DNA of 64,000 nt. It comes from Sedimentisphaerales bacterium. Its GTDB lineage: Bacteria > Planctomycetota > Phycisphaerae > Sedimentisphaerales > Anaerobacaceae. The stretch's first letter is position 1. Each line of letters opens with the position of its first letter. The stretch lies in assembly GCA_963708075.1 (NCBI GenBank), contig OY970194.1:2496001-2560000 (forward strand), read 5' to 3'. Shown here in pieces: positions 22,350 through 22,394 of the stretch. The notes below the pieces were generated by a model. That model searched no databases, was not told where the DNA came from, and was given only the letters and a program-made list of their open reading frames with translations. The position numbers and the translations under genes are program-made.

Positions 22350-22381
22350 GTCACCTGTGCCAGATGGGTGTGGATTGAAAC
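22350..22381 (+). other. Solitary CRISPR type I-C repeat-like unit (not an array)
   Basis: GT-CACCTGT-GCCAG-ATGGGTG-TGGATTGAAAC: 32 nt, 7-bp stem with 2 G:U pairs, 5-nt loop, canonical 11-nt 3' tail. Confidence 0.55.
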
Positions 22382-22394
22382 GAGGGAATCGAAA

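Follow-up and report, generated by a model that had tools for sequence, protein, structure and literature searches.

Solo copies of a type I-C CRISPR repeat before groEL2 and other core genes in a genus of Sedimentisphaerales

Introduction

Solo CRISPR repeats, as hitherto described, come from phages and cas loci. The Racrs are encoded by viruses and plasmids, about 90% of whose hosts possess CRISPR-Cas, according to Camara-Wilpert 2023 (PMC10651486). Standalone repeats and mini-arrays in cas loci are ectopic and often degraded, with some being conserved, and have been read as exaptations, while the likewise ectopic CreTA and scaRNA repeats have possible non-defence roles and give rise to a guide RNA beside a cas operon; the same source reports that repeat-like sequences are depleted outside cas loci and show no excess in CRISPR-negative genomes (Shmakov 2023, PMC10120712). 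A further study (10.1101/2022.05.19.492656) concerns spacers inside arrays and is not relevant to solo repeats.

Here we analyze a stretch of 64,000 nucleotides from a Sedimentisphaerales bacterium (contig OY970194.1, positions 2,496,001 to 2,560,000; hereinafter the window), in which a preliminary description had singled out a repeat-like element between groES and groEL2. Like the SRUs and Racrs, including RacrIC1, it is one full repeat in intergenic DNA, has no array and is possibly part of a polycistronic RNA; however, it is not encoded by a virus or plasmid, lying instead in a syntenic chromosomal region and having no exact match in viral contigs, and the copies of its genus occupy core operons at about 30 orthologous sites, including in genomes where no I-C system was found. 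It resembles the standalone cas-locus repeats in being an ectopic member of a set that is often degraded and partly conserved, and in inviting a reading as exaptation, yet it stands far from cas genes, without a second repeat or a guide target. As for regulatory mini-arrays of the CreTA kind, there are no cas genes in its genome and no second repeat beside it, and its "spacer" is the gene's own start rather than a guide. The element is laid out like an SRU/Racr or a standalone cas-locus repeat but, being chromosomal, far from cas genes and devoid of a guide, is a member of neither.

In synthetic constructs, engineered Csy4 or Cas6 repeat insulators are placed before the ribosome-binding site and depend on the nuclease; the layout at groEL2 is identical (repeat, ribosome-binding site, ORF), although a natural Cas5d version is only putative. 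REP and short tandem intergenic repeats are short hairpins scattered between genes and gained or lost from one lineage to another, from which the copies of this genus differ in being single, CRISPR-derived and positioned on the sense strand before starts. We found no report of solo repeats before housekeeping genes in the literature searched, most subscription papers and the supplementary SRU tables lying outside its scope. In the genus analyzed here, such repeats keep being gained before core genes: CRISPR DNA can reshape the starts of ribosomal-protein, chaperone and fatty-acid genes, which hints at immune-system DNA being recycled into gene-start regions.

The element before groEL2

The coordinates (Table 1) bear out the 32-nt repeat, with its stem, loop and tail, the GAGGG that follows it and the distance to the start codon, as first described. 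The stem is preceded by GT and its arms pair 22352-58 with 22364-70; the groEL2 ATG at 22395 lies 13 nt past the repeat end, in a groES-groEL2 gap of 83 nt (22312-22394). The 16S end of the genome containing the window (G000; one contig, 7.5 Mb, 92.8% complete) displays a canonical anti-Shine-Dalgarno (anti-SD) sequence.

Table 1. Features of the groES-groEL2 region (window coordinates)
Feature	Coordinates	Strand	Remarks
Solo type I-C CRISPR repeat copy, 32 nt	22350-22381	+	sequence, geometry, array comparison; 39.3 bits, E 3e-9 (the copy is itself part of the model)
Repeat stem-loop	22352-22370	+	5-nt loop, 7 bp including two G:U; in context, other pairings are predicted to win
11-nt tail	22371-22381	+	same as the tail of the genus's arrays; equals the 5' handle left by Cas5d
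Host hairpin	22331-22349	+	just upstream of the repeat
Native Shine-Dalgarno-like GAGGG of groEL2	22382-22386	+	intact, directly 3' of the repeat
groES, upstream gene	22021-22311	+	
groEL2, downstream gene	22395-24019	+	frameshift near 22815

The hairpin alone is ordinary (-7.3 kcal/mol, z -0.60; equalled by 48 of 200 shuffles). The full geometry (5-nt loop, seven pairs, no mismatch in the tail) has a single instance in the 7.5 Mb of G000 and a mean of 0.0 in four order-6 Markov genomes, and a matrix derived solely from 15 copies in relatives, which are orthologues of the very three sites that it recovers, detects 3 sites at ≥25 bits in G000 versus 0, 0 and 0 in three null genomes. These comparisons exclude a chance origin of the element, and with it the coincidence that the preliminary description had allowed for. 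In Rfam, nothing but CRISPR-DR matches below threshold is obtained (16.5 bits, where 45 is required). In its sequence context the repeat stem has a predicted pairing probability of 0.02-0.09, and no own promoter or terminator was predicted within 21800-22500. Eighteen sequencing runs were listed as a source of RNA evidence, each with a share of at most 0.15; the four inspected consist of contigs, which carry no information on RNA ends, and no listed piece spans 22318-22358. There is no second repeat beside it, such that it falls outside the definition of a CRISPR array as at least two repeats with spacer-length gaps. Its description as solitary holds within the window and fails genome-wide, with two further copies present at C1:1790912 (+) and C1:4790018 (-). 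These three copies precede groEL2, fabD (in the fabH-fabD gap) and a 462-aa gene without a Pfam or NCBIfam match, the latter two being on the sense strand, 17 and 19 nt from the ATG.

The gene order is groEL-fucosidase-fucosidase-groES-groEL2-dnaJ, with the two alpha-L-fucosidase genes (19203-21980) separating the first groEL from groES; in several relatives the two groEL genes stand closer together. The groEL2 frameshift reflects one G fewer than in four contigs, and dnaJ is apparently broken at 24150-24366. As rpoB and rplO also have frame breaks, those in groEL2 and dnaJ are probably assembly errors.

Type I-C arrays and phage repeats

Cas5 matches were recovered in 10 of 23 genus relatives, and in five of these the sequences and neighbours indicate loci that we take to be type I-C. 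One relative (G006) also combines cas7 and cas1 with an array of the groEL2-repeat kind; the 33-35-nt array repeats of four others (G004, G008, G012 and G013) share their first 6 and last 16 nt with the groEL2 copy, and that of G018, a 32-nt repeat, differs from it at 8 positions. Thus, the genus's own arrays carry ends matching the type I-C geometry and tail proposed in the preliminary description, which had made its reading hinge on such a system occurring in the lineage. By its length, its 7-bp stem and its tail, which matches that of arrays linked to cas5d/cas8c/cas7, the groEL2 element is identified as a full-length type I-C repeat. In G013, a type I-C array and cas genes directly follow a tRNA orthologous to that at window 54563-54636, a tRNA-Val(GAC) adjoining a pil gene cluster, indicating that the lineage meets I-C systems. 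None of five I-C loci from the genus has a solo before its cas genes at ≤2 tail mismatches. Among other adaptation modules, a Cas6-RT-Cas1 fusion with an array is found in G006 only (L373:1315-3666), and Cas4-Cas1 fusions of about 595 aa are seen in six other relatives.

G000 itself shows no trace of such a system. The check for cas5d, cas7 and cas8c that had been proposed recovered none of them: Cas1, Cas7 and Cas5 gave no match whereas their positive controls did; Cas8c and TIGR01876 gave none, with no positive control matching either; tblastn with 458 ORFs from 15 cas-region loci of relatives detected no Cas homologue; and a five-sequence Cas5d HMM reached a best E of 2.4, i.e., no match. 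An orphan Cas5d or other Cas protein in this genome was accordingly rejected. No array of the groEL2-type repeat was found there. A reverse transcriptase as inserter was likewise dismissed, the sole one found in the genome being a Drt8-like defence reverse transcriptase (L346:1111-2667).

In viral contigs the groEL2 repeat has no exact match, and a degenerate repeat pattern matched 8 stretches on 5 contigs. Close repeats stand solo, before gene starts, in phage contigs L470-L475 and L479, with one phage repeat showing 7 mismatches to the groEL2 copy. One contig (L471:6446-8990), a candidate Racr or mini-array locus, has five identical I-C repeats, two solo and three in a mini-array, each co-oriented with the genes around it, with one interrupting a homing-endonuclease-like gene; other phage contigs have theirs between the terminase and portal genes or ahead of a sigma factor gene. 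When three donors are compared with 70 strong 32-nt solos, the L471 repeat comes nearest (mean 6.6 mismatches versus 7.3 and 8.2), and no loop is more frequent among the solos than its own (5 of 70), while the repeat is not identical to the column consensus. Host spacers gave only 13-21-nt matches to seven viral loci, which assigns the phages to no host.

A genus-wide family of solo repeats

A model built from 19 copies (R1) matches all 23 genus relatives at E≤0.05 and, weakly (E 0.008-0.03), 4 of 13 genomes from other genera of the family. Leaving out array repeats, the solo set comprises at least 109 matches with E up to about 0.01; 150 candidates per genome were scored, and for G004, G008 and G018 the matches listed are those of at least 31.6 bits, with 45 others excluded, all counts being lower bounds. 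At least 79 strong solos (≥25 bits) are distributed over 20 of the 24 genus genomes. Their placement is biased: for 73 of the 79 listed, an ATG ORF of the same strand lies within 60 nt; for 20 there is one on the opposite strand, and among 2000 random positions the number is 663, in statistics that treat kin as independent. Three of the remaining six lie in the rplJ-rplL gap. One match of 27 bits (G007:C121) was set aside as likely false, lying within a conserved coding region.

These solos define about 30 sites, 28 of them labelled with gene names mostly read from N-termini, including rpmG, nusG, rplK, rplJ, rplW, rplV, rpmC, rpsN, rpsH and rplR, as well as fabD, groEL, dnaJ, mcsA, surE and pilB/pilC-like genes. 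The element before groEL2 is thus one of a family preceding many core genes, which does away with a special link to chaperones. Each genome has its own subset of sites (0 to at least 11 copies among the matches listed), and single-branch gains are seen at rpmG, rpmC, rplV, rpsH, dnaJ and pilC. Solo repeats have been gained many times at different gene starts, patchily across the tree, and they survive in genomes without detectable I-C systems; the assemblies of the relatives are drafts, with a completeness of 74-99%, and might lack I-C loci.

When 185,579 species genomes were scanned for a groEL- or rplK-type start preceded by the tail, 14 loci emerged, 10 in arrays, one stemless and three solos (L336, L339 and L343), the last all Planctomycetota members of this family; within those two types of start, no solo was found in other lineages. 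A phylum-wide pattern search gave 0 of 151, a weak test as the pattern also misses G000.

The groEL2 site among relatives

The groES-groEL2 region is syntenic across 21 genus relatives, and of the gaps that could be read (21 of 23), 3 are filled, 13 have a hairpin and a T-rich run and 5 are short. Thirteen of the 18 empty relatives hence have a similar host hairpin followed by a T-rich run where the filled alleles have the repeat. Six loci read from other genera have no element at this site, and a metagenome scan returned three loci, of which one (L465), with a perfect stem, was new. The tail is perfect in G000, G006, G020, L464 and L465, despite the native SD downstream.

The alignment that the preliminary description had suggested accordingly shows conservation of the tail and covariation of the stem: in six copies 39 of 42 cells pair and three pairs have changed on both sides, a score matched by 11 of 500 shuffles, though inflated by kin, with two rows being near-identical. 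Across the 19-copy set covariation does not exceed that of shuffles (73 of 500 as high).

Carriers at this site lie on separate branches of a 22-gene tree, with G020 nested among empty relatives that have an identical 3' flank. In all copies the left junction coincides with the foot of the host hairpin, which implies that the repeat was either inserted there more than once or passed between species by exchange of short tracts. At rplW, one allele with an identical left junction is common to three non-sister lineages, suggesting lateral exchange.

Junctions and the probable route of insertion

Recent gains consist of whole repeats with exact ends, and little host DNA was lost with them: about 45 nt at rplW, 2 nt at rplV and a few at rpmG. 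Their junctions show occasional AAAC echoes and no regular target duplication; such duplication as a rule was discarded, with the single clear case being one of 7 nt at rplR in G016. Cas1-Cas2 acts at both repeat borders, which, taken with the exact ends, favours joining linked to adaptation or recombination between repeat and spacer. Cas5d cuts within the repeat, leaving an 11-nt handle (PMC5965381), so that a crRNA-derived copy would be split 21/11. Judging from the junction sequences, insertion is likely to have proceeded via Cas1-Cas2-linked joining or repeat-spacer recombination, rather than from a crRNA copy.

TTN is the type I-C PAM (PMC8916207), and at 5 of 13 discovery sites, against 0.55 expected, the right junction is immediately preceded by TTC or TTT in the empty alleles. 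At held-out sites the rule gives 0 of 5 (0.15 expected), under a fixed form that left out rplV and ddl as the pattern missed their filled or empty alleles. The groEL site is negative at the G000 offset and has TTT only at that of G020. A PAM-replacement origin is thus a lead, not a result. Of 188 array spacers, none is a self-spacer against the host loci examined, beyond chance matches of 16-25 nt.

Retention at gene starts

Several features relate the copies to translation initiation. The farther a copy lies from the start, the more mismatches its tail has (rho 0.38 across 81 copies and 0.48 across 28 sites), the mean being 1.11 where no native SD lies downstream versus 1.85 where one does. 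A native SD is absent downstream at ≤12 nt and nearly always present at ≥13 nt, a pattern that is partly trivial as short distances leave no room for an SD. The predicted accessibility of the start region is greater in filled than in empty alleles at 15 of 17 sites, with small gains and a reversal at dnaJ and rpmC, and at 7 of 9 near sites the filled alleles have the stronger predicted SD pairing. A heptamer repeat in G000, A-rich and unrelated to the element, with tandem repeats of the AAATCGT type just before starts, is sense-upstream of 36 genes as against 4 in antisense; its equal sense bias points to a general filter at gene starts. Other heptamer families in this genome have no sense-upstream bias.

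We posit that type I-C donors repeatedly inserted solo repeats and that these were retained where they suited translation initiation, a reading to which we give a probability of about 0.52. As donors we envisage I-C arrays, or solo repeats borne by phages, that passed through the lineage, and retention would depend mainly on the fit with translation initiation. Sense copies would bring an A-rich single-stranded tail near the start, and might supply a weak SD to SD-poor genes while sparing native ones. At groEL2, the copy would have been inserted between the host hairpin and the ribosome-binding site; as the native SD lies downstream, it may act at most as a spacer in place of a terminator-like T-run.

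Orthologous copies at eight sites show a further pattern: pairwise identity is 0.82 and 0.77 in the stem arms, 0.70 in the tail and 0.40 in the loop, as compared to 0.63 in the upstream flank and 0.64 at four-fold sites, with detection favouring well-kept copies save in clades for which all members were used (e.g., rplR, 12 of 12). Stem pairing is kept, with 75 of 110 changed pairs still pairing against 25% expected, a figure with a bias, since pairing is rewarded by the model. The very variable loop would be equally compatible with many donors, with hypermutation or with replacement. Against a purely translational reading stand the perfect groEL tails despite a native SD downstream and the maintained stem pairing.

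A conserved stem base and tail with a free loop is what Cas5d reportedly reads, recognizing the stem base and the 3' overhang (PMC5965381). Accordingly, the copies could be natural processing sites, cut when an I-C system is present so as to insulate and stabilize the cistrons of highly expressed operons, with the upstream RNA ending in a hairpin and the downstream RNA acquiring an 11-nt leader with a 5'-OH. The covarying groEL stem and the I-C locus next to tRNA-Val in G013 are in line with this; however, we consider it unlikely: G000 has no cas gene, tail mismatches average 1.29 both in 7 I-C-positive genomes (21 copies) and in the others (42 copies), two relatives without I-C found (G019 and G021) have 11 and 9 strong copies listed while two with it (G008 and G012) have 1 and 2 among the matches listed, and the stem reaches a predicted probability of ≥0.5 in no more than 30 of 63 contexts, all three groEL copies tested having 0.00-0.05, to which the lack of covariation beyond shuffles in the 19-copy set may be added. 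The processing of the chaperone operon by Cas5d that had been envisaged at the outset thus finds no backing for the present day, and the groEL2 repeat is probably not cut by Cas5d today. That the operons concerned are very highly expressed, with the copies invariably on their transcribed strand, and that close repeats stand solo in phage contigs would also fit host-encoded anti-CRISPR decoys, with repeats in abundant mRNAs soaking up Cas5d/Cas7 as phage Racrs do, thereby damping autoimmunity or an incoming I-C system; a type I-C Racr indeed works from a bicistronic mRNA (PMC10651486). Such a role appears improbable, as the sites are core chromosomal operons rather than mobile elements, have no predicted promoter of their own and show no link to I-C presence. 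Active-looking long arrays coexisting with few solos fit the idea without testing it.

The junctions bear on another view, under which the copies are neutral scars of self-targeting: a self spacer would have struck an essential gene start, survivors would have copied the repeat-spacer junction over the PAM, and the copies would then decay, with hairpin-driven mutation mimicking covariation. The TTC/TTT excess at the discovery junctions, the many decayed copies and the presumable inability of essential genes to escape by deletion speak for it, yet the held-out sites, groEL at the G000 offset and the array spacers do not bear it out, all 12 members of the rplR clade keep a recognizable stem over genus-level divergence, and the rplW allele is common to non-sister lineages; we regard it, too, as not likely. 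Retention of the motif in genomes without cas genes and its restriction to one genus could instead bespeak the regulon of a host RNA-binding protein or RNase using a Cas5d-type motif. This we hold to be very improbable, given that the subset of sites differs per genome with no shared pathway, and that no candidate protein emerged, as from the Cas5d HMM search of G000. A more sweeping proposal combines several of these elements: the genus would have domesticated I-C repeats across core operons, written over PAM-bearing starts by adaptation or self-targeting repair, with Cas5d cutting or binding the mRNAs in cells that host an I-C system or a phage with such repeats, and alleles spreading between species by recombination. 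It is unlikely as a whole; if true, operons for ribosomal proteins and chaperones would possess a layer of natural insulators or decoys dependent on CRISPR. Repeated donor insertion with retention by fit to translation initiation remains our preferred reading, and the many natural pairs of filled and empty alleles offer a means of testing both the exit of repeats from arrays and the action of Cas5d on host mRNAs.

Other repeats in the genome

Several unrelated repeats were noted in the course of this analysis. A short dispersed repeat with the core ATTGGCTTTGTTT forms a cluster at window 12696-13099 and about 25 clusters in G000; its 218 copies there, 202 of them intergenic, are spaced at 50-90 nt and lie away from start codons, with some units of the clusters being longer repeats of 87 nt. 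Two inverted pairs of Acido-Lenti-1 motifs (window 37155-37279 and 45025-45149) display a REP-doublet-like layout. Finally, an identical leader of ~70 nt precedes 15 ORFs in G000 and is probably the end of an insertion sequence.
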